Shown: piece after piece, positions 40,701 to 56,857 of the stretch | Layout of the letters: each line of letters starts with the position of its first letter | How positions within the stretch are numbered: position 1 is the stretch's first letter | Origin: Kofleriaceae bacterium | Lineage (GTDB): Bacteria; Myxococcota_A; Polyangia; Haliangiales; Haliangiaceae | NCBI GenBank assembly: GCA_965215005.1 | Contig: CBDCCZ010000006.1 | Location: 64,001-128,000, forward strand | Direction of reading: 5' to 3' | Length of the DNA: 64,000 bases | Position numbers and translations under genes: made by a program | Notes under the pieces: model-generated | The model's input: the letters and a program-made list of their open reading frames with translations, nothing else | Told to the model about the DNA's origin: nothing | The model's database searches: none

Positions 40701-40973
40701 GATCAAGGTCCCGTCCGGAGCGGTGACCGCCATGGTGCCGGTGCCGGTCCAGGCGATGCACTCGTTGTCGGCGTCGAGGATGTCGACGTAGGCCACGGTG
40801 TTCACCTGCAGGCGCTGCCGAGCGCCCAGCTCCGCGGAGCCTTCCGCATGAGCGCTCGGTTGCCAGCTCATGACGGTGACGAGAGCCGAGGCGACGGCGG
40901 CGCTCAAGGTGCAAGTATGCAGATGCCTGCGAGGTCGATGCGGTCGCGTGGGCTTGTGCGCTGCGATGTTCAT
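34779..40973 (-). CDS. Very large surface protein: N-terminal domain, thrombospondin type-3-like Ca-binding repeats, internal MYXO-CTERM-like tag, second signal peptide, C-terminal beta-barrel
   Basis: Signal peptide ending AHA|EG; dozens of DxDxDG motifs; DNCP TSP3 units; [23 protein letters not shown]; TPAKA|QQ; barrel ending [13 protein letters not shown]. Confidence 0.85.
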
Positions 40974-41246
40974 GGGGGTCCTCGGCTCGATACCAGCTCG
41001 ATTAGCGTTTGCTCGACCAGCGCTCGTCGGCCCCGCGGTCGTCGTGCGGGGGATATAGGCACGCGTGGTCAGGGTGGGCGGATCCAACCGCCGGAATCGG
41101 CCGCAGGGGCGGCCAGCTGTACAGGCGGCCGCGCTTTTTTCATCGAGGGTGGGGAGCGTGGGGTACCGCAACCCTTGCGCTATCGCTGCGGCATTGGTTG
41201 ACTACCTGGTCCGCCTCTCTCCCACGGTTCCATGGAGGTCGCTGCG

Positions 41247-41522
41247 ATGAGTCGAATGGTTCAATGTGCAAAGCTTCAACGCGAGGCGCCCGGCCTCTCC
41301 TATCTGCCGTTCGACGATGAGCTCGGGCAGCGCATCTATGAGGAGGTTTCCGAGGAAGCCTGGCGCATGTGGCTCGAGCACTCAAAGATGATCGTCAACG
41401 AGTATCGGCTCGACCTAACCAGCGAAAAGGCCCACGAGCTGCTACGTGAGCAGTGCGAGTCGTTCTTCTTTGGTGAAGGCGCGGCGCTGCCGCCCGACTT
41501 CACCGCGCCGCCAGCAAAATGA
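41247..41522 (+). CDS. yggX: Oxidative damage protection / Fe(II) trafficking protein YggX
   Basis: MSRMVQCAKL…ELGQRIYEEVSEEAW…MIVNEYRL. Confidence 0.92.
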   Translation: MSRMVQCAKLQREAPGLSYLPFDDELGQRIYEEVSEEAWRMWLEHSKMIVNEYRLDLTSEKAHELLREQCESFFFGEGAALPPDFTAPPAK

Positions 41523-42964
41523 CGGAAGGTCTGGACACGACGGGGCCTCTAGCAGAGCCGGGCGCGATCGTGCTGGTGTCCTGCTATGAGCTCGGTCACC
41601 TGCCGCACGGCGTGGCCATGGCGGCAGGCTTTCTGCGGCGCGCAGGCTTTGCGCCGGTAACCGTCGACCTGTCCATCGAGAAGCTCGATGACGAAGCCGT
41701 TCGCGGCGCCTCGCTGGTAGCCATTTCGGTGCCCATGCACACGGCGCTGCGCCTCGCAGCGCCACTCATCGAACGCGTGCGTGCGCTCGCACCGGCGGCA
41801 GTCGTATGTTGCTACGGGGTTTACGCGCCGCTCAATGAAGCGTGGCTGCGACAGCTGGGCGTCGACTACGTCATTGGGGGAGAAGCCGAAGACGAGCTGG
41901 TCGCGCTCGCCACGGCTCTAGCCCAAGGTCGGCAGCCAACACCGCAGCTGGTCTCACTCGACAAGGTGCGATTTGCCGCGCCGCATCGCGAGCCGCCCGC
42001 ACTGCTGCAACGCCGCTTGCACAAGCACGCCCAGCTCGACCTCGGCAATGGCCAGCGGCGGCTCGTGGGCTACACCGAGACCACGCGCGGCTGCCTCGAT
42101 ACCTGCCGCCATTGCCCGATCCCGGCCGTGTATGGCGGGCGATTTTTCGCGGTTCCGCGCCAGGTGGTGTTGGCCGACATCGAGACCCAGCTCGCCGCTG
42201 GTGCCGAGCACATTACCTTTGGAGATCCAGATTTCTTGAATGGGCCCGGGCACGGGCTGGCCATCGCCGCCGAGCTTCATCGCCGCTGGCCACACGTCAC
42301 GTTCGACTTCACGGCGCAGGTGACGCACCTACTGCAGCAGCGTTCGCGGCTCCAAGAGCTGCCGGCGATGGGCTGCGCGTTCGTCGTGAGCGCGGTGGAA
42401 TCCCTAAGCGATACAGTGCTGGCTGCGCTGAAGAAGCGCCACCGTCGCGCGGCCGTCGAGGAATTGTTCGCTCTGGCTGACCAAGCGCATCTGGTGGTGC
42501 GGCCCACCTTCGTGACGTTTACGCCATGGACCAGCTTGGATGACGTGCGCGAGCTGGCTGAGTTTCTGGCTTGCTGGGGACTGGTCGATCACGTCGACCC
42601 CGTGCAGCTCTCGATTCGCTTGCTGGTGCCGCCGGGGTCGCTGCTGCTCAAAGCCGACGACACCCGCGGCGCCTTTGGGCCGCTCGACTCCGCCGCTCTC
42701 ACGCATCGATGGGTTCACGAGGATCCGCGCGTGGATGCGCTACAGCGCGCCATCGCGGCGCGGGTGGCGCTCGCTGCGCAGCGAGGCGATGACGCCCTCG
42801 ATGATAGTCACGCCGTGTTTTCCGCGATTCATGGGCTGATCTACGAGGCCCTTGGACAATCGCCACCAGAGCTGGTGATCCCGCGGCGCCGGGTGCCGCG
42901 GGTCACCGAGCCGTGGTTCTGTTGAAGCGAGCCCACCGAGAGCCAGTTCGGCTCTCTCGTTTGA
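41519..42964 (+). CDS. B12-binding-domain radical SAM protein of the CUAEP/CCAEP-tail family; predicted selenoprotein (TGA 42923-42925 = Sec)
   Basis: SCYELGH…ISVPMHTA B12-like domain; CLDTCRHC (CxxxCxxC); VTEPWFC-TGA-SEPTESQFGSLV-TGA. Confidence 0.85.
42926..42961 (+). promoter_or_regulatory. Candidate bacterial SECIS element
   Basis: Directly 3' of the in-frame TGA: upper stem GAGAGCC/GGCTCTC with loop AGTTC; possible lower stem AGCGAG/CTCGTT. Confidence 0.6.
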
Positions 42965-42965
42965 T

Positions 42966-44210
42966 CTACAAGAGTGGCGCAATGAAGAACTCGAGGGCGG
43001 CCGCGGCGCGGCGCAGCGCGTGGGTCACCGCGGCGCTGTCCGCGCCGTCGGCGAACACAAAGCCCATGTACGTGTTTCCTTCCGGCAGCGGCACGACGTG
43101 CTCCCCCAAACGCGCCGTGAGCACGACGTCGCGGATGAGCGGCATCACGGCCGCCGCGTCGATGCCGTCGATGCCGCGCAACACCCCGGCTTTCGGCACC
43201 GGCAGCATGTAAACGCCGCTGGCCCCGGAGCGCCGGCCCGCGAGAAGCTCGCCCACGTCGCGCCCAATGGCGTGGGCCAACAGGACCTCCGGCAGCGAAA
43301 CGCCCGCGAGCTCGAGAGTGCGGCCGCACAAGCCACCGATCGGCCGCGCCGCTAGCTCCAGGACCACCGGCTGCCCGCGATGCAGGCGCAGCTCGGCGTG
43401 AATGGGACCATTGACGACTCCAATGGCGCGGGCCGCCGCGGCCACCGCAGCAATGATCGCGGCTTGCTCGGGCGCGGAGCGCTGCGACGGCGTGACGTAG
43501 ATGGTTTCTGCGAACACCGGCCCCTCCAGCGGATCTGGTTTATCGAAGACGGCAATCGGCACCAGCCGCTCATGGTCTACCAGCGCCTCCACCGCGACCT
43601 CGTCGCCGTGCAAATATTCTTCGATCAAGATCAGCGCCGCGGCAGCTGGATTTTTGGCCTCGAGCTCTGGGTTTTCGAGCAGCTGACAGAGCCGCTGCAT
43701 GCGCGCCGCGAGCTCGCTGGAGTCATCAGCGCGCATCACGCCACGGCTGGCCGACAAATGCAGCGGCTTGATGACCACCGGAAAGCGCAGTGCCTCGGGC
43801 AAGCGACGGCTCTGACGCGGCACCACCGCAAACCGCGGCTGCGCGCATCCCGCTGCCGTGAGCGCCTGCCGCAGGCGCTGCTTATCGGCAGCCGCGCAGG
43901 TTGCCGCGACGGTGCCGTACCCGAGCCCCAACACCTCGGCGGCGCCAGCGGCGATGACTGCCGCATCCTCATCGAGGGCCAGAATTCCGGCCAGCGGTTT
44001 GGCGCTCGCGTGCTCGACGATCTGCTTCACGGCGCGCGTGGGATCGCGATAATCGAGCGGCCACGCGCCCTCGGGCCACAGCTCGGCCAGCTGATGACAG
44101 CGATCGGTGCCCACTGCCAATTCAATCTGCAACTGCGCCGCCGCACGTTCGAAGTCGCCAAGCGCATAGGCGCGCTTGGACGCGAGCAACAAAGCGACAG
44201 GCGCTGGCAT
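42966..44210 (-). CDS. ATP-grasp domain ligase
   Basis: DKQRLRQAL, FPVVIKPLHLSASRGV, ILIEEYLHGDEVAVE, HAELRL…VLELAARPIGG. Confidence 0.9.
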   Translation of the reverse strand: MPAPVALLLASKRAYALGDFERAAAQLQIELAVGTDRCHQLAELWPEGAWPLDYRDPTRAVKQIVEHASAKPLAGILALDEDAAVIAAGAAEVLGLGYGTVAATCAAADKQRLRQALTAAGCAQPRFAVVPRQSRRLPEALRFPVVIKPLHLSASRGVMRADDSSELAARMQRLCQLLENPELEAKNPAAAALILIEEYLHGDEVAVEALVDHERLVPIAVFDKPDPLEGPVFAETIYVTPSQRSAPEQAAIIAAVAAAARAIGVVNGPIHAELRLHRGQPVVLELAARPIGGLCGRTLELAGVSLPEVLLAHAIGRDVGELLAGRRSGASGVYMLPVPKAGVLRGIDGIDAAAVMPLIRDVVLTARLGEHVVPLPEGNTYMGFVFADGADSAAVTHALRRAAAALEFFIAPLL

Positions 44211-44236
44211 TGCCGCTGGTTTACCATCGCCGTTGC

Positions 44237-45319
44237 ATGCTGTCGCCCGGTGCCGAGTCGGTGGCGCTATTCCGGCAATTCCCAACGCTGTGCTCGCGTC
44301 TGCCGTGGGTGCATCTGGGCGCGTGGCCCACGCCGGTCGAGCCGCTGCGTCTGGCCAGCGGCTGCCAGCTGTGGGTCAAACGCGACGATGCCTGCAGCAG
44401 CCTCTACGGCGGCAACAAAGTGCGCACGCTGGAGGCAATGCTCGGCGTTGCCCGCGCATGCGGCGCGCAACGCATCTGGGCCACCGGCGCCTACGGCTCG
44501 AACCACGCGGTTGCAACCCTGGCGCACGCGCCCCGCGCCGGTCTGCAGGCCGGGGCCATCCTATTTCCGCAGCCAAGCTCGCCGCCGGCGCGTGCCAACC
44601 TCTCGGCCGCGCTCAGCCTTCGCCCTCACCTGCTCGCGCTCGCCAGCATTCTCGAGCTGCCCCTGGCCATGCATCGCGTTCGCCGAAATAGCCACGACTA
44701 CGTCATGCCTCCCGGTGGCGCCACGACCGAAGGCACCTTCGGCGCTCTCTCCGCGGCCTTCGAGCTCGCTACGCAGGTCGCCGCGCGCGAGTGCCCCCTG
44801 CCTCGTCGAGTCGTTATCGCGGTCGGCTCGACCTGCACCACGGCCGGTCTCCTTGCTGGACTTCACGCCGCTGCTCGCATGGGAGTGTGGCCGGGCGCGG
44901 TGCCCATCGTGCACAGCGTGCGGGTGACGCCGTGGCCAATCACCAGCCGCGCGCGCATCGCCTGGCTCGCGCAGCGCACGCTTCATCGACTCGAGCGGCT
45001 CGTCGGCGTCACGCTCGGTGTGAGCTACCGCGCCTTGCTGGCCAACCTCGTCGTCGATCGCCGCTTCATCGGCCGCGGCTACGGCCGTGCCACCCAAAGC
45101 GGTCGCCGCGCCCTCGCCCGGTTCGCCGACAGCGGCGCGCCCCCATTGGACTTGGTGTATTCGGCAAAATCCGCGGCCGCGCTACTCGCTTTGGCCAATC
45201 GCTCCCGCGGCCCACTCCTATATTGGGCAACCAAGTCGTCGGCCCCTCTGCCCATTGCAAGCGCCGCTGATGTCGCCGTCGCACCGGCGCGCGCCCGCCA
45301 TTGGCTCGAGCAGCCGTAG
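44237..45319 (+). CDS. PLP-dependent enzyme, D-cysteine desulfhydrase / ACC deaminase family
   Basis: PTP…LWVKRDD…YGGNKVRTLE, GSNHAVA, VGSTCTTAGL, LDLVYSAK. Confidence 0.88.
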   Translation: MLSPGAESVALFRQFPTLCSRLPWVHLGAWPTPVEPLRLASGCQLWVKRDDACSSLYGGNKVRTLEAMLGVARACGAQRIWATGAYGSNHAVATLAHAPRAGLQAGAILFPQPSSPPARANLSAALSLRPHLLALASILELPLAMHRVRRNSHDYVMPPGGATTEGTFGALSAAFELATQVAARECPLPRRVVIAVGSTCTTAGLLAGLHAAARMGVWPGAVPIVHSVRVTPWPITSRARIAWLAQRTLHRLERLVGVTLGVSYRALLANLVVDRRFIGRGYGRATQSGRRALARFADSGAPPLDLVYSAKSAAALLALANRSRGPLLYWATKSSAPLPIASAADVAVAPARARHWLEQP

Positions 45320-45431
45320 AGCGAGGGGCTGCGTGCGGCGGGCGCACTGGAGAAGCCACCGTTCGCGTCGCAGTGGAGCTCAACACCTGTCGGCTCGATC
45401 GCGCGCGCCGTCTTCGCAGGGCCTTGGCGGG

Positions 45432-45781
45432 CTCGAGCTGATCATGACGGCGCCTATGGTTGTCGCGAGCTGGATCACCCTGCAGTATTTAGGGCTCCAC
45501 CGTCGACCCCGGCATCTTCGGGTCGGGCAACAAAACCCTTCACAATGTCGTCGGAGGTAGTCTAGGTGTATCTCAACGTGATGATCGAAGCACCGGTCGA
45601 ACCCATGAGTACGATAATAGAGAAACACGATACCGTCCGACAGCTCGTCGACAATGGTTGGATTCACCTGTTCGCGATGGACGCGAACGGGCGCGTTAGC
45701 CACAAGCACGCCGGTGACTCGTCGTGGTCGGCCATCGAGCATCCCCTTCAGGAGAACCAGGCGTGCGCCCAGGTCTCGTAA
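45432..45781 (+). pseudogene. dabA: Frameshifted, internally deleted 3' remnant of DabA (DUF2309) inorganic carbon transporter subunit
   Basis: Three frames: LELIMTAPMVVASWITLQY / STVDPGIFGSGNKTLHNVVGG / LNVMIEAP…IIEKHDTVRQLVDNGWIHLF. Confidence 0.85.
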
Positions 45782-46989
45782 AGCGCCTTGGAATCTTGGG
45801 AGGCGGGCAGTTGGCGAAGATGCTCGCAGAAGCGGCGCTGCGGCAGGGAATCGCGCCAACAGTGCTCGTGAGTGAGGCCTCCGACCCCGCGGCCATCGAC
45901 GGGGCCACCCTCATCGTCGGGTCGCTGGATGCGCCTGCCGCACTGTCTGAGCTGGCAGCTAGCTCAGACGTGCTCACGCTCGAGAACGAGTTCATGGACC
46001 TAGACCAACTGGGGCGAGTCCTAGAGCAACATTCTGGGACGGTATTGCGACCGGGCGTCGAAAGCATCGCTACCGCCCAGGACAAGCTTGCGCAGCGGGG
46101 ACTGTTTCAGCGTCTGGGAATTGCGACGGCGGAGTTCGATCTCGTCCGCGCTGACTCTCTAGCGAGCGATCTCCAGCGAGTGCGAAAACGCTTTCCGAAC
46201 GGGTTCGTGCTCAAGTGGTCGCGCTTTGGCTATGACGGCCGCGGCAACCTGTTGGTTCCTTCCGGTCGAGAGGTCCCGCTGGAAGAGCTGGAAGAGTTTT
46301 GCCGCCTTGGCGAAACCCGAGGAGCCACCATCTACGCGGAGCGGATGGTGGACTTCGAGTGCGAGCTAGCCATGGTGTCGACGCGCGCGGCCGATGGCGA
46401 TCAAGTCTATTACCCTCTCGTGATCAGTCGACAAGAGCGCGGCGTGTGCAGGGAAGTCTACGGCCCCGCATCGGCCGCCGGCTACGATGAAGACCTCGAA
46501 CGAGCCGCCCGCGCGACCATTCGCTCAATCGCCACCGAGCTCGACCTCACGGGCACCTTGGCAGTGGAGTTCTTCCTAGAGCGCGATGGGCGTCTTCTGG
46601 TGAACGAAATGGCTCCACGAGTGCATAACAGCGGGCACTACACGCTCTTTGGCCAAACCCCGAGCCAGTTCGACCTCCACGTACAAGCGGTGATCGGCGC
46701 GCCGTTGTCGAGACCGGAGCTGCGCGGCCTCGGCGTCATGCGAAACCTCTTGGGCCCGTGGACAACACCACAGAACGTTACTTGCACCGCCCCCGCCGAG
46801 GCGCCACCCGAAGGCACCACGTTGACGTGGTACGGCAAGCAGCAGGTGTCGCCCGGTCGTAAGATGGGTCATCTGAGCGGACGAGCTACCTCACTTCAAG
46901 CCGCAATGGACTTGCTGGAGGCCATGGCGAGCTATGAAGCGCGATTTTGGAGCACCGTGAGCAGCTCCAACGAGGAGACCTCGCCATGA
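45763..46989 (+). CDS. purK: N5-carboxyaminoimidazole ribonucleotide synthase
   Basis: [61 protein letters not shown] before GTG 45763. Confidence 0.93.
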
Positions 46990-47516
46990 CCATTGAGCCA
47001 CCCCGCGTAGCCATCATCATGGGCTCCGACTCCGACTGGCCAGTGATGAGAGCCGCCGCCGAAGCGCTGCGTGAGCTTGACGTGAGCTATGAGACAGCAG
47101 TGATCTCGGCTCACCGCATGCCGCAAGAGATGGCCGAGTTTGCCTCCAACGCAGCGGCCCGGGGCATCGCGGTGATCATCGCGGGTGCTGGCGGCGCGGC
47201 TCACCTGCCGGGAATGGTCGCGGCACACACCGAGCTGCCGGTGGTCGGAGTGCCCGTGCCGATTGGCCATCTACAGGGCATGGATGCGCTGCTATCTATC
47301 GTTCAGATGCCCAAAGGAGTTCCCGTTGCGAGCGTCGCCATCGGCGCGGCGTTTAACGCCGGTATATTGGCCGCGCAGATGCTTGCCTCTGGCGGCGTCG
47401 AGCCCGATCGGGCGCTATCGGAGCGGGTGCTAGCCTATAAGGCAAGACTGCGACAGGCCGCGGCCGCAAAGACGCTTCCGCCGATCTCGAGTGTCGAGGA
47501 GGACGCAACAGGATGA
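46986..47516 (+). CDS. purE: N5-CAIR mutase
   Basis: [40 protein letters not shown]. Confidence 0.96.
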
Positions 47517-48412
47517 GACTGAGTCATCTGCGCGCACTCGAGGCCGAAGCCGTTCGCATCTTGCGTGAAGTGGCTGCCGAGTGCGAGCGTCCCGTGTTGC
47601 TCTTCAGCGGCGGGAAAGACTCGATTGCCCTCTTGCGCCTCGCAGTCAAAGCGTTTCGGCCAGCGCGGCTGCCCTTTCCGATCTTGCACGTCGACACAGG
47701 GCACAACTTCCCCGAGATCATCGAATTTCGTGACCGCCTGGTGGAAGCTCTGGGGGAAACGCTCATCGTCGCGAAGGTGCAAGATCGGATCGACCAAGGC
47801 TTACTGACCGATGAGACCGGCCCCGGAGCGAGTCGCAATCGACTCCAGATACCCGTGCTTCTCGAGGCGATCGCTACTCATCGGTTCGATGCTGCCATCG
47901 GCGGCGCTCGACGAGATGAGGAGAAAGCGAGGGCAAAGGAGCGGGTTTTTAGCCACCGGGATCGACATGGCCAGTGGGATCCTAAAAATCAACGCCCGGA
48001 GCTTTGGTCGCTCTACCACGGCAAACTTCGCCGAGGCGAGCACTTACGAGTCTTTCCGCTGAGCAACTGGACCGAGCTCGATGTCTGGGAATACATCGCC
48101 GCGGAAGAGATCGAAGTTCCCGAGTTGTATACCGCAAGAATCCGAACCGTGTTCGAACGAAGCGGTCTTCTCTACTGTCCTGCGCCGTTCGTCCACCGAC
48201 TGCCATCAGAGACTCTATTTGAGACAAAGGCTCGGTTTCGCACTGTTGGAGACATGACTTGCACCTGCGCAGTTCGGTCCCACGCCGAGACACTCGAGGA
48301 GATCATCGCCGAAGTGCGGTCCAGCCGGATCACCGAACGCGGCGCCACTCGTGCCGATGACCGTATGAGTGATGCAGCAATGGAAGACCGCAAGCGCGAG
48401 GGCTACTTCTAA
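47513..48412 (+). CDS. cysD: Sulfate adenylyltransferase subunit 2
   Basis: [51 protein letters not shown]. Confidence 0.96.
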
Positions 48413-48419
48413 ATCCGCC

Positions 48420-50474
48420 ATGACCACTTCTCCGCTAGACCCGAGCACTCAAGCTCCTGCGAGCCTGCCCGATCAGCTGCGGCTCGTCACCGCGGGAAGC
48501 GTGGACGATGGCAAATCCACGTTGATCGGTCGCCTGCTCTTCGACAGCAAGGCGATCTTCGACGATCAGTGGGAACAAGTTCGGGAGGTGAGCGCGCGCC
48601 GCGGAGACGAGCGCGTCGACCTGGCCCTCGTGACAGATGGTCTCCGCGCTGAGCGCGAGCAGGGCATCACCATCGACGTCGCGTATCGATACTTCTCGAC
48701 CTCCAAGCGCAAGTTCATCATCGCAGATGCGCCGGGGCACGTTCAGTACACGCGAAACATGGTCACCGGCGCGAGCACTGCCGATTTAGCGATCGTGATC
48801 ATTGACGCGCGCAACGGGTTCGTCGAACAGAGCAAGCGCCACATGTTCTTGGCGAGCTTGCTCGGAGTTCCCCATCTCGTAATTGCCGTAAACAAGATGG
48901 ATCTCGTCGGCTACTCGGAAGCTGTTTTCGAAAGGATCAAGCTAGACGTATCCTCATGGTCGGCAAAGCTCGAAGTGCGCGACCTCACGTTCATCCCGAT
49001 TAGCGCGGTAGTGGGCGACAACGTCATCGAGCGGAGCGCGAACATGCCCTGGTACGGTGGGAGTAATCTGCTGCACCACCTCGAGACCGTTCACATCGCG
49101 TCCGACCACAATCTGATCGATCTCCGATTTCCTGTGCAGTGGGTAATTCGCCCCCAGTCAGACGCCTACCGAGACTATCGCGGTTACGCCGGCGTAGTGG
49201 CTAGCGGCGTCATGCGACCGGGCGATGAAGTTGTCATCCTGCCAAGAGGAACCACCACCCGCATCACGCGAGTGGAAACATTCGATGGACCACTCGCCGA
49301 GGCATTTCCTCCAATGGCCGTCACGGTGCACTTGAAGGATGCAGTAGACGTGTCCCGCGGAGACATGCTGTGCAGACCGCAAAATCTACCGCATATTGGA
49401 ATGCGACTCGATGCCATGGTGGCTTGGATGAGCCGTAACCCTCTCTCTATTGGGAAAAGTTATGCCCTGAAGCAGGGCACCAGATGGACGAAGGCCACCG
49501 TATCGAGCATTCAGTACGAGCTCAACGTCAACACGCTGCATCGCGAAAGTGCGCAAACGCTGGCGCTCAATGGTATTGGTCGCGTTCAGCTGCAAGCCAC
49601 AGCACCCATTCCCTATGACGCCTACACGCGCAATCGCACGACGGGATCATTTATTCTGGTGGACGAGGCCTCCGGCGAAACTGTCGGCGCTGGAATGCTC
49701 CTTCAGCCACACACCGAAGAAGTCTTGGCGTTACCGGCTAGCGCGGAAACCGACAGGAGCGCAGGGGACGGTCGCCCTGGACTCTTCGTCACGGGTACTG
49801 ACACCGGAGTCGGAAAGACTGTGGTGAGTTGCGCTCTCGTCACAGCGCTCCGCAAGCAACAAGTTCGTGCCGTCGGCATGAAGCCCATCGCTTCCGGATG
49901 CGAAGCGACCCCCGAAGGACTGCGAAACGACGACGCAAGACTACTGCAGGCTGCCAGTGGAGTTAACGACTATGACCTCGTCAACCCCATTGCGTTCTTG
50001 CCGCCAATCGCGCCGCACATCGCGGCGGAACAAGTTGGGCAATCGATCTCGCTGGCCGCAATCGAGGTTGCCTTCCAGCGCCTCGCCGAGGATGCCGAAT
50101 TCATCGTCGTGGAGGGCGCAGGAGGCTACCGCGTGCCGCTTGCGACCGGCGGGCCGACCATCGCCGAGATTCCCAAGCGCTTGGGCCTCGGGGTGCTACT
50201 CGTCGTGGGCATCCGTGTTGGCTGTCTGAGCCACGCGATCTTGACCGCAGAGGCCATTCGCGCAGATGGATTAGAGCTCGTGGGATGGGTGGCGAACTGC
50301 CCAGACTCAACCGTTCTCGAAATAGACCGGCAAATCGCCACGCTCGCGGCCCACCTGGCCGCTCCGCTGCTGGGCGTCATCCCTTCACTAAAGCTCCGCG
50401 ACGAGAGAGACGCAAGCGTGGCGCATTCGTATCTGCACCTGCAACCGCTACTGTCGCGCCTAAAGGCGAAGTAA
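48420..50474 (+). CDS. cysN-bioD: Fusion of sulfate adenylyltransferase GTPase subunit CysN and dethiobiotin synthetase BioD
   Basis: GSVDDGKSTLIGRL, EREQGITIDVAYRYF, NKMD, ETVGAGM; then FVTGTDTGVGKT, KPIASG, APHIAA, VVEGAGG, GCLSHAILT, GWVAN in one uninterrupted frame. Confidence 0.92.
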   Translation: MTTSPLDPSTQAPASLPDQLRLVTAGSVDDGKSTLIGRLLFDSKAIFDDQWEQVREVSARRGDERVDLALVTDGLRAEREQGITIDVAYRYFSTSKRKFIIADAPGHVQYTRNMVTGASTADLAIVIIDARNGFVEQSKRHMFLASLLGVPHLVIAVNKMDLVGYSEAVFERIKLDVSSWSAKLEVRDLTFIPISAVVGDNVIERSANMPWYGGSNLLHHLETVHIASDHNLIDLRFPVQWVIRPQSDAYRDYRGYAGVVASGVMRPGDEVVILPRGTTTRITRVETFDGPLAEAFPPMAVTVHLKDAVDVSRGDMLCRPQNLPHIGMRLDAMVAWMSRNPLSIGKSYALKQGTRWTKATVSSIQYELNVNTLHRESAQTLALNGIGRVQLQATAPIPYDAYTRNRTTGSFILVDEASGETVGAGMLLQPHTEEVLALPASAETDRSAGDGRPGLFVTGTDTGVGKTVVSCALVTALRKQQVRAVGMKPIASGCEATPEGLRNDDARLLQAASGVNDYDLVNPIAFLPPIAPHIAAEQVGQSISLAAIEVAFQRLAEDAEFIVVEGAGGYRVPLATGGPTIAEIPKRLGLGVLLVVGIRVGCLSHAILTAEAIRADGLELVGWVANCPDSTVLEIDRQIATLAAHLAAPLLGVIPSLKLRDERDASVAHSYLHLQPLLSRLKAK

Positions 50475-50750
50475 GCCGCCTCGGAGGCTCCGTCCACCCT
50501 CCCCGCGAGTGGTGCACGAACCACGTTCTTCCGCGGCGTGAGAAGCGCTGGCACTCTGTGCGGGTGGATGAGCAGATGCTAACGAGCGCGAGAGGTTGGC
50601 TATTGCGGCGCCGGAGAGATCATCGACTAACGCGGCCGCTCGGCAGCGGCCTCGGTCGGCGCATCACGGGGTCGGCGAATCTTTGTAGTTGCGCGGCCGC
50701 CCAGAGGCGCTCGAGGAGGGCGCCGTCGAGGCGGCGCCACACCGCACTAC

Positions 50751-52196
50751 TTAGTTACAAATGCCTTCTGCAGAGTCGAAGCAGGCGCGCCCGCCTTGAT
50801 AGCAAACACAGGTGAATGCGCGATCGATGTTGCAGGTCTTCCTGAACGATGGGTAGTTGCCGCAAAGGGGCTCGCCATAGCGTTGCGTATCGGTGAGGCA
50901 GGTCTTGCCGCCGCCGCTACGAATGCAGGCTGCGATGGCTCGATAGTTATTCTTAAGGCCTGCCACGTTGCACTTGGTCGAGCCAAGCTTTGGCCCTTCG
51001 ACGGCGTGACGCTCGCAGCTACTACTCGTGACCTTCTGATAGATGGTCCAGACGTCTTTGCTAAAGAGCTCAAGGAGCTGATAGCGAATCGGGATCTGCC
51101 GTCCGAACAGCTTGAAGAAGTTCACGGCCGCGCCCACCGTTGCGTTGATGTTCACGCCCAGCTTGATGCCCACTTCCTGATTGGCTTGATGACGTCGCAA
51201 GAACAGGTTGGGGCCCGCATCTATATATAATCCGGCAACGCGAAACGGCGCGACGGTGACGCGGGGCTTGACGAATATCTTGCCCTCGAGCTGGAAATCA
51301 CTATCGGCAGTTATGCGTGGCGAGCCGCCGCGGCTTCGCGGCAGGTGCGCTCCGAGACGGGCCTGCCAGCCGCCGCCGCGGGTGTGGCTCGCCGAGCCTT
51401 CGATCCGCTCGCTGATCGTGACCGGCAGCGTCACCGCGATGTCGCCATCGTAGGTGGCCTGCACGCCAGCGATGAGCTCAACGGTGATGACCACGGGCAC
51501 CCATCCCGCAGAGACGACGAATTCACGCTTCATTCCCGGAATAGGTGTCTCGAAGCGCGAACTGGCTTTGCCGTGGGCTTCGAATACCAAGTCGAAGCGG
51601 GCGGCGATATCGATTGCATAGTCGGCGTGAAAATATTCATTCACCAGGTTCATCGACACCGCGATATCGGGTGTCACCGTGAGCTCGGCGTTGGCGACCG
51701 CAGCGCTTAGCGGTCCAACTTTGAGCAATGAGCGATCACCGAGGGGAAAGCGGATTCGCGGCCCGGCCCGCAGGTTGTTCAATGCAGGAGCGAAGCGCAC
51801 CGAGAAATCGAGCTCGGCGAACGCATCTTCCAGCGCAGCGGGCTCGGTTTTCACGATGATTGCATCATCATCCATAGGATCGATCGCAAGCACCCGACGG
51901 ATGCCGTCATCGGCGATCAAGATGGAGCCCAGCTGAATCGGCGACTCAGCTCCGTCATAGAGCAGCGTCATCGACTGGTCGGCAGCATCAAGTACTTCGA
52001 ATTCAGTCCCCGGTCCGACTCGCACTGCCTCCGGCTTGAGCTCTACCGAGCGCAGCTCCGAATCGACTGCCGTCGCGTCGAGCTCGCCCTCTGCGGGCGC
52101 TGTCGTGCATCCCGTGCCACCGACCAACATCGAGATCGCACCTAGAACCAAGGCTCTCCCAACACCAATGCCCCCGAGCTGCGCAGTTTCTGTCAT
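50751..52196 (-). CDS. Hypothetical lipoprotein, beta-rich body with 10-Cys C-terminal domain
   Basis: Hydrophobic leader ending GGTGC; C-terminal ~90 aa hold 10 Cys; start set at ATG 52196 from promoter position. Confidence 0.75.
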   Translation of the reverse strand: MTETAQLGGIGVGRALVLGAISMLVGGTGCTTAPAEGELDATAVDSELRSVELKPEAVRVGPGTEFEVLDAADQSMTLLYDGAESPIQLGSILIADDGIRRVLAIDPMDDDAIIVKTEPAALEDAFAELDFSVRFAPALNNLRAGPRIRFPLGDRSLLKVGPLSAAVANAELTVTPDIAVSMNLVNEYFHADYAIDIAARFDLVFEAHGKASSRFETPIPGMKREFVVSAGWVPVVITVELIAGVQATYDGDIAVTLPVTISERIEGSASHTRGGGWQARLGAHLPRSRGGSPRITADSDFQLEGKIFVKPRVTVAPFRVAGLYIDAGPNLFLRRHQANQEVGIKLGVNINATVGAAVNFFKLFGRQIPIRYQLLELFSKDVWTIYQKVTSSSCERHAVEGPKLGSTKCNVAGLKNNYRAIAACIRSGGGKTCLTDTQRYGEPLCGNYPSFRKTCNIDRAFTCVCYQGGRACFDSAEGICN

Positions 52197-52208
52197 GCGC
52201 ACAGCCTA

Positions 52209-52224
52209 AGCAACACCGATACCA
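52209..52224 (-). promoter_or_regulatory. Sigma54 (-24/-12) promoter
   Basis: Minus strand TGGTATCGGTGTTGCT, close to the TGGCAC-N5-TTGCW consensus. Confidence 0.7.
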
Positions 52225-52545
52225 TCGGGTCCAGAGCCAGAAATCCAGCCACACGACCCGGCGCAACGACCTCCGACCGCCCTGCGCTGGCCTGCAGCGG
52301 CTGCTAGAGCGCCAACCGCGGCCGAATCCGTCGCAGGCTACTGCAGTTGCCGGCACCTCTACATTGCACAGCATGGCCAGCGACTGCACACAACCAACAT
52401 CACTAGCGGATCATCCGCGTACATCTCCAAATGAGACATCGAAATGGTATTCGAGATTCGCCTGCCCTCGCCGCGCATTAGGCGGGCGAGATCGCGCCAT
52501 GCCTCCTGCGGCGGACGGCTATGTGACGGCTATGAGCCCGCGACT

Positions 52546-53610
52546 CTAATTCTTCTGCTTGCTCGAACGTTGGGTACCGAGGATCTCGCGGCGGCACGGC
52601 TCGATGAGCTCGGCCGTGACGCGGGCCCGATAGACGATGGGAGTGCGGTCGCGAAGCTGGCGCGCGATGCGAGCCGCTTCGACGCAGCGGCGGGCGGTGA
52701 GCGCAGCGCGCAGCGCTTGCAGCTGGGCCTCGCTCCAGCTGGCGTCTTCGTCGCCAGCTTCCTCGGCTTGCTCGCTGTACAAAGGCGCGGACGTGGCAAC
52801 GGGCGCAGCCGGCGCGGCCTCAGCAGACGACGTAACCGACCCAGACGCAGGCGCAGAATCGGTAGCCTCCGGTTTGGCGCTGCGCGCGGCTGCTCGCCGC
52901 TCGCGCTGAGCCCTTCCGGCGCCGGCCGCCTCGTCGGCCATCGCCGCCGCCTGCGGCTCGGCGGCTCGACGGCTCGGCGCTCCGCGGGGTTTCTGTGACT
53001 CTACCGCCGCCTTCTCGGTCCGCTCTTCGCGCTTGCCGATCGCTCGGTCAGCCGCAGCCGACGGCGCATCGTCACTTCCAGCCTCGAGGGCCGCCTCGAG
53101 CTCGAGCGCCATGGCCTCGTCGGCCAACCCTGCTGAGCGCGACAAATCACCGCCCACCACCGCCTCCCCTGCGGCGCTCGCACCGCCTCCCACGCTCTCG
53201 AGCGACGCAGGAGCTGCAGCGATGCGCGGCTCGGCGACTCGGTGCTCGCCGCGGATCAGCAGCGCGCCCGCGACCCCGGCGACGACCACCAAGGTGGCCA
53301 CGGCGGCGGCGGCAGGGTGTGCGGTGAGCGGAGCCAAGAAGTCGCGCATCCGCTCCCACCAAGAACCCGCTGCGGGGGTGCTGGGAGCTCGCTTGCCGGC
53401 TTCATGGAGCAGCCGCTGACTGAGCGCCGCAGGCGGCTCCAGCGCCGGCACTTTGTGCAGCTCCTCGCGGGCTTCGGCCATGCGGGCCAGAGCACCTCGA
53501 TCCTCAGGATGAGCCTCGAGGTGCCTCTCGAGCTCCGCCGACTCGACGTCGTCGAGCTCACCGTAGAGCCGGCCGACGAGGAGCGCGTCAATGGATTCGT
53601 TCTGCGACAT
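52546..53610 (-). CDS. Putative transmembrane anti-sigma factor (degenerate zf-HC2)
   Basis: LYGELD…LERHLEAHPEDR, EPPAALSQRLL, TM segment, low-complexity periplasmic region. Confidence 0.7.
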   Translation of the reverse strand: MSQNESIDALLVGRLYGELDDVESAELERHLEAHPEDRGALARMAEAREELHKVPALEPPAALSQRLLHEAGKRAPSTPAAGSWWERMRDFLAPLTAHPAAAAVATLVVVAGVAGALLIRGEHRVAEPRIAAAPASLESVGGGASAAGEAVVGGDLSRSAGLADEAMALELEAALEAGSDDAPSAAADRAIGKREERTEKAAVESQKPRGAPSRRAAEPQAAAMADEAAGAGRAQRERRAAARSAKPEATDSAPASGSVTSSAEAAPAAPVATSAPLYSEQAEEAGDEDASWSEAQLQALRAALTARRCVEAARIARQLRDRTPIVYRARVTAELIEPCRREILGTQRSSKQKN

Positions 53611-53789
53611 GGCGAGCTCGGGGCATCTTAGCGTTGTTGGGCGCCGCCGGCGAATCCTTGCGCGGGACGGCTGCGCGGCGGGGCCTACAGCGTTGCACGC
53701 CCCAGCGGCGCGCTTGGTCTAACCCCGGCGAATTCAAACCCCGAAGCCCCGGCCTTGCCCGCCGACGAGCCTCGGCCGATGCTCCATTC

Positions 53790-54575
53790 ATGAGTGTTTT
53801 TCGACCCGACATCCTCGCTGGCCACGTCGCGCTCATCACCGGTGGCGGCAGCGGCATCTGCAAAGGCATCGCGCATGCTTTCGCCGCCCATGGCGCCAAC
53901 GTCTGCATCACCAGCCGTAAGCAGGAGGCGCTCGATGCTGCCGCCGCCGAGATCGCCGCCGCGACGGGTGGCCAGGTGTTAGCGGTGGCCGCCGACGTTC
54001 GTGAGCTCGAAGCTCTGCAGAACGTGGCGGCGAAAACCATCGAGCGCTTTGGCCGCCTCGATACCTTGGTCAATGGCGCGGCTGGCAACTTCTTGGCGCC
54101 GGCGGCAGCACTTTCCTCCAATGCTTTCAAGACGGTCGTAGACATCGACCTCATCGGCACGTTTCACGGGTGCAAAGCAGCGTTCGAAGCGCTGCAAGCC
54201 AGCGGCGACGCGCTGATTCTCAACATCAGTGCCACCCTGCACTACCACGGCACGCCATTGCAGCTGCATCCCTCCGCCGCCAAGGCAGGCGTCGACGCGC
54301 TCACGAAGAACCTGGCCGTCGAGTGGGGGCCGATGGGCATCCGCGTCAATGGGATCGCGCCGGGGCCGATCGGCGACACCGAGGGGATGCGTCGGCTCGC
54401 CCCGGGCGAGGTTGGCGACAAGCTGCGAAAGCACATTCCGCTCGGTCGCCTGGGCCGCATCGATGAGATTGCACAAGCCGCGGTTTACTTGCGCTCGGCC
54501 GCCGCGAGCTACATCACCGGTGCGGTTTTGGTCGTTGATGGTGGCCAGTGCATCGCGGCGCCGTCATTCATGTAG
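53790..54575 (+). CDS. SDR oxidoreductase, 2,4-dienoyl-CoA reductase-like
   Basis: ITGGGSGI, NGAAGNF, ISATLHY, AAKAGVD, IAPGPI…EG. Confidence 0.9.
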   Translation: MSVFRPDILAGHVALITGGGSGICKGIAHAFAAHGANVCITSRKQEALDAAAAEIAAATGGQVLAVAADVRELEALQNVAAKTIERFGRLDTLVNGAAGNFLAPAAALSSNAFKTVVDIDLIGTFHGCKAAFEALQASGDALILNISATLHYHGTPLQLHPSAAKAGVDALTKNLAVEWGPMGIRVNGIAPGPIGDTEGMRRLAPGEVGDKLRKHIPLGRLGRIDEIAQAAVYLRSAAASYITGAVLVVDGGQCIAAPSFM

Positions 54576-54589
54576 CTTGAGAAACAGCA

Positions 54590-55888
54590 TCAGGACATCC
54601 GCACCCAGCGAATCAGCTCGCGCAGCGAGGGCCGCTTGCCATGCATGAGGATGCCCACGCGGTAGATGCGCGCCGCGAGCCACACCACTGCAACGGTTGC
54701 AACGAGCAACAGCGCGAGCGAGAGCACGACGTCGCCGGCGGTGGCGCCGCCCATGAGCCAACGCATCGGCATCAGCACCGGAGAGGAGAATGGGATGAGC
54801 GTGAGCAGCTCAGCGGAGCTCGAGCGTGGATCGTTGGCCACAATTTGCACGCAAAGCACCGGAATGAGCAAGAACAGCATCACCGGTGTCTGTGCCTGCT
54901 GCGCTTCCTGGTCGCTGTTGACCATCGCGCCAACGGCAGCATAGAGCGACGAGTAGAACGTATAGCCGGCAAAGAAGTAGGCAAGAATCACCGCCACGTC
55001 GACGACGCCGAGCGCGGGCAGGTCAAAGCCACCGCCGCTCACGCCAAACAATCCGAGAATGACGTCTTGATAGCGCACCAACACCGCGGCAATCAGCGCC
55101 CAAATGCCCAGCTGAAACAATCCCACAGCGCCGACGCCGACGATCTTGCCGAGCATCAGCGCGTGCGGCTTGATCGCGCTAACGAGGATCTCGACGACGC
55201 GGCTGGTTTTCTCCTGCACCACGCTGCGCAGAACGTTTACGCCGTACAGCAGAATCGCCATGTAGAGGATGAACATCACCACGTAGCCGGTGATGAACAG
55301 AGCAGCGCCAGAGGTAGCCTGGGCGCGGCCGGTGGTGTGGCGCGGGATGACGAGCACCGGCTCGAGCACCTTGCGCGCGACCGCTGCGGAAACGCCGGCG
55401 TGGGTGGCGCGCACGCGCTGCACCGCGAGCACGACCTGGCGCTCGAGGAGCGTCATGATCATGAGGCTCGTGGCGTTGTCGCCGCTATAGATGACGTTGG
55501 GGAAGTCGCTCGTTAGAAGATTCTCGGGCACGACGAGAAATCCATCGATCTCTTCGGACGCGATCTGCGCGAGCAAGTCCTTCTCCGGCGTCTCCGTGGC
55601 CACCAGCTCGGCGTGGATGCGGACCTCGGCGAGCGAGTCGATTAGCTCAACGCCAACTTGGCCGCTGCGATCGATGATGCGCACCTCGGTGGCGTCTTTG
55701 GCAGCATCGGCGGCAAGCAGAGCCGGCACGACGATGACGCCGACCATTCCAATCGGCCCAAGTATGGTGACGATGACAAACCAAATGGTGCGGACGCGCT
55801 CGCGAAATTCGCGCCGCGCGATCACCATCCAAGGAGCACGCCTGCCTGTCATCCGGGTCCTCTCGTTGCTCCGCAGCAAGCTTCGCAC
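54590..55888 (-). CDS. ABC-2 transporter permease (NatB/YhaP-like)
   Basis: IARREFRERVR, VVQEKTSRVVEILVS, GKIVG, IPFSSPVLMPMR, RIYRVGILMHG; alternative start 55852. Confidence 0.9.
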   Translation of the reverse strand: MRSLLRSNERTRMTGRRAPWMVIARREFRERVRTIWFVIVTILGPIGMVGVIVVPALLAADAAKDATEVRIIDRSGQVGVELIDSLAEVRIHAELVATETPEKDLLAQIASEEIDGFLVVPENLLTSDFPNVIYSGDNATSLMIMTLLERQVVLAVQRVRATHAGVSAAVARKVLEPVLVIPRHTTGRAQATSGAALFITGYVVMFILYMAILLYGVNVLRSVVQEKTSRVVEILVSAIKPHALMLGKIVGVGAVGLFQLGIWALIAAVLVRYQDVILGLFGVSGGGFDLPALGVVDVAVILAYFFAGYTFYSSLYAAVGAMVNSDQEAQQAQTPVMLFLLIPVLCVQIVANDPRSSSAELLTLIPFSSPVLMPMRWLMGGATAGDVVLSLALLLVATVAVVWLAARIYRVGILMHGKRPSLRELIRWVRMS

Positions 55889-56857
55889 TCAGCGCGCCGA
55901 CTTCACGGCGTGACGCGCTTTGTCGGAGCCGACTCTGTCGACGAAGATCTGGTGCAGGCTCGGCTCGACACGCTCGAAGCGACGCACCACCAACCCCTGC
56001 CGCACCAGCTCTTCGAGCACCGCCTGCGGACGGACCTCGGTTGCGAGCTCGAGCTCGTCATAGCCGTTTCGCGCCCGCAGCACCGCCACCAATCTGGGAT
56101 CGTCGAGCACCGTCTGTCGGGCTCGCGTCGCTTCGGCCTCGGTCTCGAAGGCAACCGCGAGCAGCCGCTCCCCCGCGGCCTCGCGCTTGACCTCGGCGAG
56201 CGCCCCTTCGACCACTTTGCGACCGCGCGCGATGATGCATACGTAGTCGCAGATCTTTTCAGCTTGCTCCATGAGGTGGGTCGAAAACAGCACCGTGCGG
56301 CCGAGGGCGCGTTGCTCGAGAACGATCTCCCGCAACACCTCGGCATTGATGGGATCGAGACCGCTCCAGGGCTCGTCGAGAATCACCAGCTCGGGCTCGT
56401 GGATCAGCGCGGAGGCAAACTGCACCTTTTGCTGCATGCCTTTAGACAGGTCTTGCACCTTGTTGCGCGCCCAATCGTCCAGGCCTAGCTTGGTGAGCCA
56501 ATCGCCCGCGCGCCGCATGGCATCACGAGTGCCAATGCCCCGCAGCTCGGCGAAAAACGTCAACGTCTCACCTACACGCATCTTGGGATACAGGCCGCGC
56601 TCCTCGGGCAAATAGCCGATTCGCCGCGCCGCCTCGCGCCCCGGCGAAAGCCCTTCCAGCAGGGAAATATCGCCTTCATCCGGCGCCGCGATGTCATTGA
56701 TCATCCGCAGCGTGGTGCTCTTGCCGGCGCCGTTGGGACCTAGCACTCCATAGATGACGCCCGTCTTCACCTCGAATGACAGCGAGTCGACCGCCAGGTG
56801 ATCGCCGTAGCGCTTGGTGACGCCACGCAAGCGCAGGCTGTAGGGTTCATCGTCCAC
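55889..56857 (-). CDS. ABC transporter ATP-binding protein (NatA/YhaQ-like)
   Basis: GPNGAGKST, GYLPEERGLY, LSKGMQQK, ILDEPWSGLDP, STH. Confidence 0.92.
   Translation of the reverse strand: MDDEPYSLRLRGVTKRYGDHLAVDSLSFEVKTGVIYGVLGPNGAGKSTTLRMINDIAAPDEGDISLLEGLSPGREAARRIGYLPEERGLYPKMRVGETLTFFAELRGIGTRDAMRRAGDWLTKLGLDDWARNKVQDLSKGMQQKVQFASALIHEPELVILDEPWSGLDPINAEVLREIVLEQRALGRTVLFSTHLMEQAEKICDYVCIIARGRKVVEGALAEVKREAAGERLLAVAFETEAEATRARQTVLDDPRLVAVLRARNGYDELELATEVRPQAVLEELVRQGLVVRRFERVEPSLHQIFVDRVGSDKARHAVKSAR

Follow-up and report, generated by a model that had tools for sequence, protein, structure and literature searches.

Does a polypeptide in which a sulfate-activation enzyme runs without a stop into a biotin-synthesis enzyme reflect a real gene, and, if it does, what joined the two? 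The question is raised by a 64,000-nucleotide stretch of a Kofleriaceae bacterium genome (GenBank assembly GCA_965215005.1, contig CBDCCZ010000006.1, positions 64,001 to 128,000 of the forward strand), here called the window; the genome (G000) is a draft of 62 contigs and 6.2 Mb, 92.8% complete. In one open reading frame (ORF) of the window, CysN, the GTPase driving the CysD ATP sulfurylase, is followed by BioD, dethiobiotin synthetase (DTBS), an enzyme family that uses ATP and CO2 to close the ureido ring of 7,8-diaminopelargonate. Here, we report that this CysN-BioD fusion is a genuine gene fusion, and that it represents a very rare, lineage-restricted, new domain architecture made of two well-known enzymes. 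The explanation we favor, with a probability of roughly 0.65, is a bifunctional polypeptide whose two halves keep their usual functions, an acquired bioD having been fused behind cysN.

The frame is open without interruption (48369/48420 to 50474, plus strand), and the ATG at 48420, 7 nt past the cysD stop, opens 684 codons (ORF list and translation). Pfam finds GTP_EFTU, D2, and GTP-eEF1A_C, followed by AAA_26, the BioD fold (residue limits in Table 1). A reading made from the sequence alone (the sequence-only reading) had proposed that BioD stands here instead of the adenylyl sulfate (APS) kinase CysC, and this was upheld: there is no Pfam match to APS_kinase (PF01583) within the ORF, and the bifunctional CysNC model NF004035 reaches 658.7 bits, under its cut-off of 715. 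The NF004035 match reaches no further than model position 484 of 632, and its extension over residues 454 to 477 is generic P-loop likeness only. The same reading had placed the end of a complete CysN at ETVGAGML near 49700, the start of BioD near 49785, and a stop-free linker of about 25 amino acids (aa) between them; we find ETVGAGML at residues 420 to 427 (49677 to 49700), closing a full-length CysN domain, F456 of FVTGTDTGVGKT beginning at 49785 in a complete BioD domain, and a linker of 26 aa with the frame open throughout. Its remark that no internal start is evident needs amendment, for an in-frame ATG (49695; M426, which belongs to the conserved GAGM motif) and an in-frame TTG (49725; L436) do exist near the linker; it holds in that neither is preceded by a Shine-Dalgarno-like motif.

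Is the junction real? Only one public run (X1) holds this stretch, possibly the assembly's own source sample. A Logan contig from that run (16,657 bases; depth, 4.65) spans 48653 to 51500, junction included, and shows neither gaps nor differences over that span; as the run may be the source sample, the contig counts as a second assembler and not as a second sample. Over 49700 to 49790, where the sequence-only reading had wanted read support, it is continuous, and no stop or misassembly is seen. The same homologous junction is present in two other public proteins from unrelated assemblies (P0012 and P0256), and because the Logan contig crosses the join without a difference and these proteins share it, the junction is not an assembly artefact. 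The rival possibility, that a faulty join or a wrong base in the metagenome-assembled genome conceals a stop between two genes, draws on the draft state of the assembly, the low depth from a single run that may be its source, and Logan contig breaks at 48052 to 48079 and 48653 to 48673. Those breaks, however, fall in the conserved G-domain region, about 1 kb upstream of the junction, which itself lies within the single 16.7-kb contig; two unrelated assemblies encode proteins with a homologous junction; and a separate bioD would be left without a usable start codon and ribosome-binding site. We regard such an error as highly improbable. As a separate observation on run X1, summed contig depth over 48585 to 48818, in the CysN G-domain, climbs from roughly 5 to a maximum of 1,421, and contigs break there; the spike evidently stems from other organisms with near-identical words in the sample.

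How unusual is the architecture? A protein search with residues 400 to 684 returned 193 proteins of 376 to 1197 aa at E values of ≤0.001; among the 120 listed, GTP_EFTU and AAA_26 occur together in the query and P0012 only, and the rest have BioD joined to BioA-, BioF-, or BioC-type domains. With the whole protein as the query, the 120 listed matches were the query itself, P0012, and 118 CysN proteins of 406 to 470 aa without a further domain. An exhaustive HMMER search of 1.84 billion cluster representatives with residues 330 to 684 gave 12,584 matches, and P0256 alone spans the junction among the 150 listed. Three CysN-BioD instances (the window protein, P0012, and P0256) are therefore known among the matches listed in searches of billions of proteins. 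No match spanning both halves was found in the whole genomes of 40 relatives, nor in 137 other species-representative genomes of the same family (a tally that includes G067 and G068, with ordinary separate matches), in which the best other score was 123.8 bits versus 694.7 for the window. With P0256 as the query, a scan of metagenomes gave 80 loci, each of them CysN or CysNC and none with BioD; P0256's own 1,030-bp contig was not among them. Full-text searches of the literature found no description of CysN or sulfate adenylyltransferase fused to BioD. The suspicion raised from the sequence, that the architecture is unusual and undescribed, is borne out by the three instances among the listed matches and by the lack of a description in those literature searches.

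The BioD half is intact. It scores 155.1 bits against the equivalog model TIGR00347 (cut-off, 83.3), with residues 456 to 626 covering model positions 1 to 166 of 166, and it aligns end to end with Escherichia coli DTBS (1a82_A, residues 4 to 215; E value, 4e-49). In that alignment, E. coli positions T11, K15, T16, K37, S41, D54, and E115, which we take to be P-loop and substrate/Mg residues, are all identical in the window, and E12 is Gly, likewise in most close relatives. The P-loop GTDTGVGKT occupies residues 459 to 467 (49794 to 49820). Compared with 16 close stand-alone BioDs, the domain retains 58 of the 59 near-invariant columns, and its end branch in the BioD tree is 0.23 (median, 0.39). 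From this conservation, the fused BioD is most likely catalytically intact and is predicted to be an active DTBS. A repurposed BioD-like ligase, one of the possibilities that the sequence-only reading had left standing, finds no support in the window protein, given the 58 kept columns, the E. coli catalytic positions, and its place as sole bioD in a genome with bioF, bioA, and bioB.

This BioD does not look like those of its host's family. Identity is 33 to 44% to family BioDs (full-domain matches listed), 55 to 61% to a metagenomic BioD set (two members labelled "Myxococcales bacterium"), and 68% to the stand-alone protein P0389 (227 aa). To the best 80 GTDB loci, it is 44 to 55%, all Pseudomonadota by title except one metagenome-assembled genome labelled Streptomycetaceae; that scan used exact peptides of the query and therefore finds only BioDs sharing those peptides. 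In a BioD tree of 56 rows (quick IQ-TREE; Shimodaira-Hasegawa-like approximate likelihood ratio test [SH-aLRT] support), nine family BioDs form their own clade (SH-aLRT, 99) apart from the window BioD, which groups with P0012 and P0389 (SH-aLRT, 81) inside a clade of the gamma/beta-proteobacterial type. At this degree of similarity (E ≤ 1e-42), no BioD turned up among 146 other genomes of the order or among 400 sampled from the class; of 400 sampled from the phylum, one had a match (G273), which lies in an ordinary bioF-bioD-bioA row. Judged by identity and tree position, the fused BioD is of the gamma/beta-proteobacterial type and foreign to the family. Composition does not flag the bioD part as foreign (G+C at third codon positions, 0.70 versus 0.69 in the cysN part).

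The host's own bioD is gone. The genome encodes bioF (432 bits), bioA (542.9 bits), and bioB (376.4 bits), each above its cut-off, and has one bioD-family match, the fusion ORF; no bioD other than this fused copy was found. A relative (G022) carries the row yidC, khpB, mnmE, bioF, bioA, and bioD, followed by rsmG on the other strand, a response regulator, tsaD, and rsmA. Outside the window, contig C54 of the window's genome carries a G022-like row minus bioD, with a gap of about 460 bp between bioA and rsmG (locus L043, 6255 to 6718) in which tblastn with either BioD found no BioD remnant (best E value, 0.02). The native bioD is thus cleanly deleted from a syntenic bioF-bioA-bioD operon, and because its slot is empty and without remnant, we conclude that the native gene was displaced by the fused, foreign-type BioD. 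A search of the genome for separate bioD, cysC, and bioABF, proposed along with the original prediction, gave bioF, bioA, bioB, a lone cysC, and a cysD-cysNC set, and no second bioD was found.

The CysN half is complete as well. TIGR02034 scores 569.6 bits (cut-off, 336.1) over residues 20 to 427, model positions 1 to 406 of 406, and the motifs GSVDDGKST at residue 26, DAPGH at 103, and NKMD at 158, which are G1, G3, and G4 of the translational-GTPase scheme, are present. Near-invariant columns are kept at 118 of 124 positions, the six changes being mostly conservative; control CysN rows (n = 49) mostly show 0 to 1 changes, and 4 of the 49 show 6 to 10. At residue 276 (49245 to 49247), a Ser near-invariant in 49 nonfused CysN proteins is Arg in the window and Gly in P0012. 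In a CysN tree of 52 rows, the window CysN and P0256 are sisters (SH-aLRT, 99) nested among stand-alone CysN proteins of about 430 aa, several source-named Sandaracinaceae or Sandaracinus; both the CysN-CysC fusions of the family and the cysNC that this genome carries on contig C5 fall well away from that group.

What became the linker can be read from its neighbors. Stand-alone CysN relatives end 1 to 7 aa past GAGML, and stand-alone BioD relatives begin 2 to 5 residues ahead of FVTGTDTG; since these ends and starts flank the linker, it probably combines what was once the tail of CysN with an intergenic spacer. An AGGAG within it (Table 1) might possibly be a relic of the old bioD ribosome-binding site, a faint and suggestive trace only. 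Chance recombination between two P-loop-initial domains, an origin entertained by the sequence-only reading, is unlikely, as the CysN half sits in the stand-alone clade, away from CysNC, and the linker is tail-like. As a candidate of its own, a swap of CysC for BioD at the P-loop was rejected in view of the same placement of the window CysN among stand-alone forms and by the tail-plus-spacer linker; a CysN half from the stand-alone clade had no CysC to be swapped out.

The two other carriers differ from the window in the state of BioD. P0012 (609 aa; Logan, 3 contigs) shows 55% identity across 649 alignment columns and has the same CysN-linker-BioD order. P0256 (324 aa; Joint Genome Institute, 1,030-bp contig) is 69% identical to residues 177 to 488, a match that continues across the linker and into GVFVTGTDTGIGKTVVSCALVAALRDRGVEAVGMK. 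The linkers stand at the same place in all three fusions, with unequal lengths (26, 21, and 14 aa). In P0012, the P-loop GTDTGVGKT has become STDAACGVD, and the equivalents of the P-loop Lys, K37, and E115 are lost; 26 of 59 near-invariant BioD columns are kept, about 46 alignment columns are deleted, and the end branch is 1.75. Its BioD C-terminal half is still well conserved (Pfam AAA_26 profile positions 90 to 192, 44.4 bits). By these residues, the P0012 domain is predicted to be catalytically dead, yet it is retained. P0256 is BioD-like for 36 domain residues and then continues with 16 unrelated residues and a stop. The carrier known to lack another bioD, that of the window, keeps an intact domain; P0012 and P0256 do not. 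On the number of origins, P0012 falls outside the window's clade in the free CysN tree (SH-aLRT of the intervening branch, 95), so that two changes are needed on that tree; a tree uniting the three fusions was not rejected by the approximately unbiased test (difference in log likelihood, 8.6; P = 0.221). One origin would fit the BioD tree, in which the group of window, P0012, and P0389 has an SH-aLRT of only 81.

How, then, could the gene have formed? In the account we favor, a bioD of the proteobacterial type would have been acquired and have come to stand immediately downstream of a stand-alone cysN; with the stop of the one and the start of the other then lost, a short spacer would have turned into the linker; and with both activities kept in one polypeptide, the native bioD would have become dispensable and been deleted from the end of the bioF-bioA-bioD operon. 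The fused copy would thereby be the cell's only BioD, made from a purK-purE-cysD-cysN transcript. We infer the order of these events, the retention of both activities, and the absence of channelling between them; a neutral or mildly useful fusion is the simplest account.

A number of observations weigh against this account. The window CysN has an end branch of 0.51 (median, 0.12; P0012, 0.62). Outside the window, the genome holds a second classical set, cysD and a cysN-cysC fusion (650-aa open frame), at C5:51558-54256 (minus strand), and a lone cysC beside a weak match to the PAPS (3'-phosphoadenosine-5'-phosphosulfate)-reductase family at C33:25906-26361 (plus strand), these two contigs holding the genome's APS kinase matches. 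The C5 set means that sulfate activation is encoded twice, and the long end branch together with the cysD-cysNC set and cysC elsewhere means that the CysN half may be redundant or changing role. With the genome 92.8% complete, a second bioD is possible. Depth at the junction is low, in a run that may be the source sample, and no RNA run is listed among the public runs for this stretch. The proposed intermediate, an unfused cysN-bioD neighbor pair, was found in none of the loci examined, and a dead BioD that is nevertheless retained, as in P0012, is not expected if the domain serves as an enzyme only.

Some of these points would suit a different history, in which BioD hitch-hikes on a decaying cysN, the redundant CysN drifting and serving bioD chiefly as a translated leader through which it obtains a promoter and a ribosome-binding site. 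The complete cysD-cysNC on C5 and lone cysC on C33 would supply the redundancy; the CysN end branch and the 6 of 124 changed near-invariant columns, where most controls have 0 or 1, would be the drift; and cysD stands barely above its cut-off (411.9 versus 396.6 bits). We consider this history unlikely, since the GTPase motifs are intact, 118 of the columns are kept with mostly conservative changes, at least as many changes occur in 4 of the 49 control rows, the 684 codons contain neither stop nor frameshift, and cysD is intact, its start overlapping the purE stop (translationally coupled).

The dead domain of P0012 bears most directly on the main alternative, structural co-option. BioD, which we take to be a homodimer, would here fill the slot at the CysN C-terminus otherwise held by the dimeric P-loop kinase CysC, dimerizing or regulating CysD-CysN, and DTBS activity would be a retained extra, dispensable in P0012. 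Besides the dead yet recognizable BioD of P0012 (AAA_26, 44.4 bits; 26 of 59 columns), two CysN proteins of relatives speak for it (G008, L012 1426-3129, plus strand; G029, L013 1429-3111, plus strand), each with a C-terminal extension of about 125 aa that aligns with the CysNC linker (…ERRARLGQ…) and has neither a P-loop nor a Pfam APS_kinase match; this extension may represent a CysC domain that has degenerated without being lost from CysN. The BioD of the window also starts at about the same residue as CysC in Mycobacterium tuberculosis CysN (residues 424 to 614), which PMC4373884 describes as a dimer in the crystal and in solution. On the other side, the closest CysN relatives are proteins of about 430 aa without any C-terminal domain, and because they work at that length, CysN does not need one; the dead domain of P0012, with its end branch of 1.75, may be decay in progress; and P0256 loses the BioD frame after 36 domain residues. 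Structural co-option is improbable, if the best of the alternatives. The broader form of the idea, that the CysN C-terminus is a general docking slot for dimeric P-loop domains in which an acquired BioD was exapted, still the sole DTBS in the window and purely structural or regulatory in the P0012 lineage, is one we hold as doubtful; if true, it would present an enzyme caught at two stages of its conversion into a scaffold.

Does the fusion couple the two pathways, as had been suggested from the sequence? Dethiobiotin synthesis could be tied to sulfate activation in stoichiometry, location, or regulation, BioB at the next step consuming sulfur; the fusion itself, its survival in two or three lineages at least, and its place in one operon with cysD would fit. 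In the established pathways, however, sulfate activation and dethiobiotin synthesis share no intermediate; the architecture is extremely rare; BioD is dead in one carrier (P0012) and broken or truncated in another (P0256); and no sulfur context surrounds bioF, bioA, and bioB, which are located elsewhere. Nothing found requires coupling of sulfate activation with biotin synthesis, and we rate it as very unlikely.

The fusion matters mainly as a case of gene displacement and as a warning for inference. Both halves being textbook enzymes, no new chemistry is implied, and as a cross-pathway fusion, the gene would mislead function inference of the "Rosetta-stone" kind. Automatic annotation would probably call it CysN or CysNC, thereby hiding the genome's only bioD. 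The locus also presents xenologous displacement at single-gene resolution, a foreign-type bioD on cysN replacing a gene excised from a conserved operon, and the dead BioD on the CysN of P0012 hints that C-terminal P-loop domains can persist for noncatalytic reasons.

The fusion gene closes a same-strand cluster that opens with purK (Table 1). The window's flanking genes, sought beside cysN in 93 loci and beside purE in 3 relatives, revealed no common synteny. The G+C content of cysD, cysN::bioD, and a downstream 483-aa ORF (47513 to 52202) is 0.59 to 0.62, compared with a window mean of 0.652 and 0.63 to 0.70 in flanking genes. That ORF (50751 to 52202, minus strand; hydrophobic N-terminus, Cys-rich C-terminus) and a 354-aa ORF (52546 to 53610, minus strand) are convergent with the fusion gene and have no Pfam match. 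Upstream of purK are a gene resembling ATP-grasp L-amino-acid ligases (42966 to 44285, minus strand; ATP-grasp_4, LAL_C2) and a gene for a pyridoxal-phosphate-dependent (PALP) enzyme (44210 to 45319, plus strand), divergent and with called 5' ends overlapping by 76 bp. A promoter/terminator scan of 45000 to 51500 gave counts at chance level, and Rfam had no match over 40000 to 56000.

Table 1. Features of the cysN::bioD locus, in window coordinates (res, residues).
Feature	Coordinates	Strand	Details and basis
purK (N5-carboxyaminoimidazole ribonucleotide [N5-CAIR] synthetase), first of same-strand cluster	45724..46989	+	Pfam ATP-grasp, RS_preATP-grasp-like, PurK_C
purE	46947..47516	+	Pfam AIRC, 199.8 bits; TGA stop overlaps cysD ATG (ATGA 47513-47516)
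cysD, catalytic ATP-sulfurylase subunit, CysN partner	47513..48412	+	TIGR02039, 411.9 bits (cut-off, 396.6); Pfam PAPS_reduct; TAA 48410-48412
cysN::bioD fusion ORF	48420..50474	+	684 aa plus stop; ORF listing, translation, Pfam, NCBIfam
CysN part	48480..49700	+	GTPase domain (GTP_EFTU), res 21-203; domain II (D2), res 258-318; domain III (GTP-eEF1A_C), res 330-427
Linker, 26 aa, res 428-453, QPHTEEVLALPASAETDRSAGDGRPG	49701..49778	+	Between Pfam domains; stop-free
AGGAG in linker	49755..49759	+	7-13 nt before start point of stand-alone BioD relatives (P0389: MRGIFVTG...)
BioD (dethiobiotin synthetase) part, res 454-684	49779..50471	+	TIGR00347; alignment to E. coli DTBS; AAA_26, res 454-658

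Four known systems frame the fusion. With CysNC/NodQ, of which the same genome has an example on contig C5, it shares an N-terminal CysN, a CysD encoded upstream, and a C-terminal P-loop domain about 25 residues past GAGM; it differs in that this domain is BioD and not APS kinase and in that the CysN half comes from the stand-alone clade, and because BioD serves an unrelated pathway, there is no product hand-over like that of APS to CysC. Stand-alone CysN proteins of the Sandaracinaceae type (about 430 aa) are 65 to 72% identical to residues 18 to 430 and likewise form a cysD-cysN pair, but they end 1 to 7 residues past GAGML without a further domain. BioDs of the E. coli type (PDB 1a82/1dad series) and P0389 match the C-terminal half, by full-length alignment to E. 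coli DTBS with its catalytic positions and by 68% identity in P0389; they are free-standing, whereas the window's BioD has the CysN linker in place of a start Met. In within-pathway fusions, too, BioD is one half of a two-enzyme polypeptide, joined to BioA, BioF, or a BioC-type methyltransferase; plant BIO3-BIO1 is one, and there are many among the 120 listed matches (PF13500 with PF00202, PF00155, or methyltransferase domains). Their partners catalyze neighboring steps of biotin synthesis, whereas the partner in the window, CysN with its GTP_EFTU, D2, and GTP-eEF1A_C domains, belongs to sulfate assimilation.

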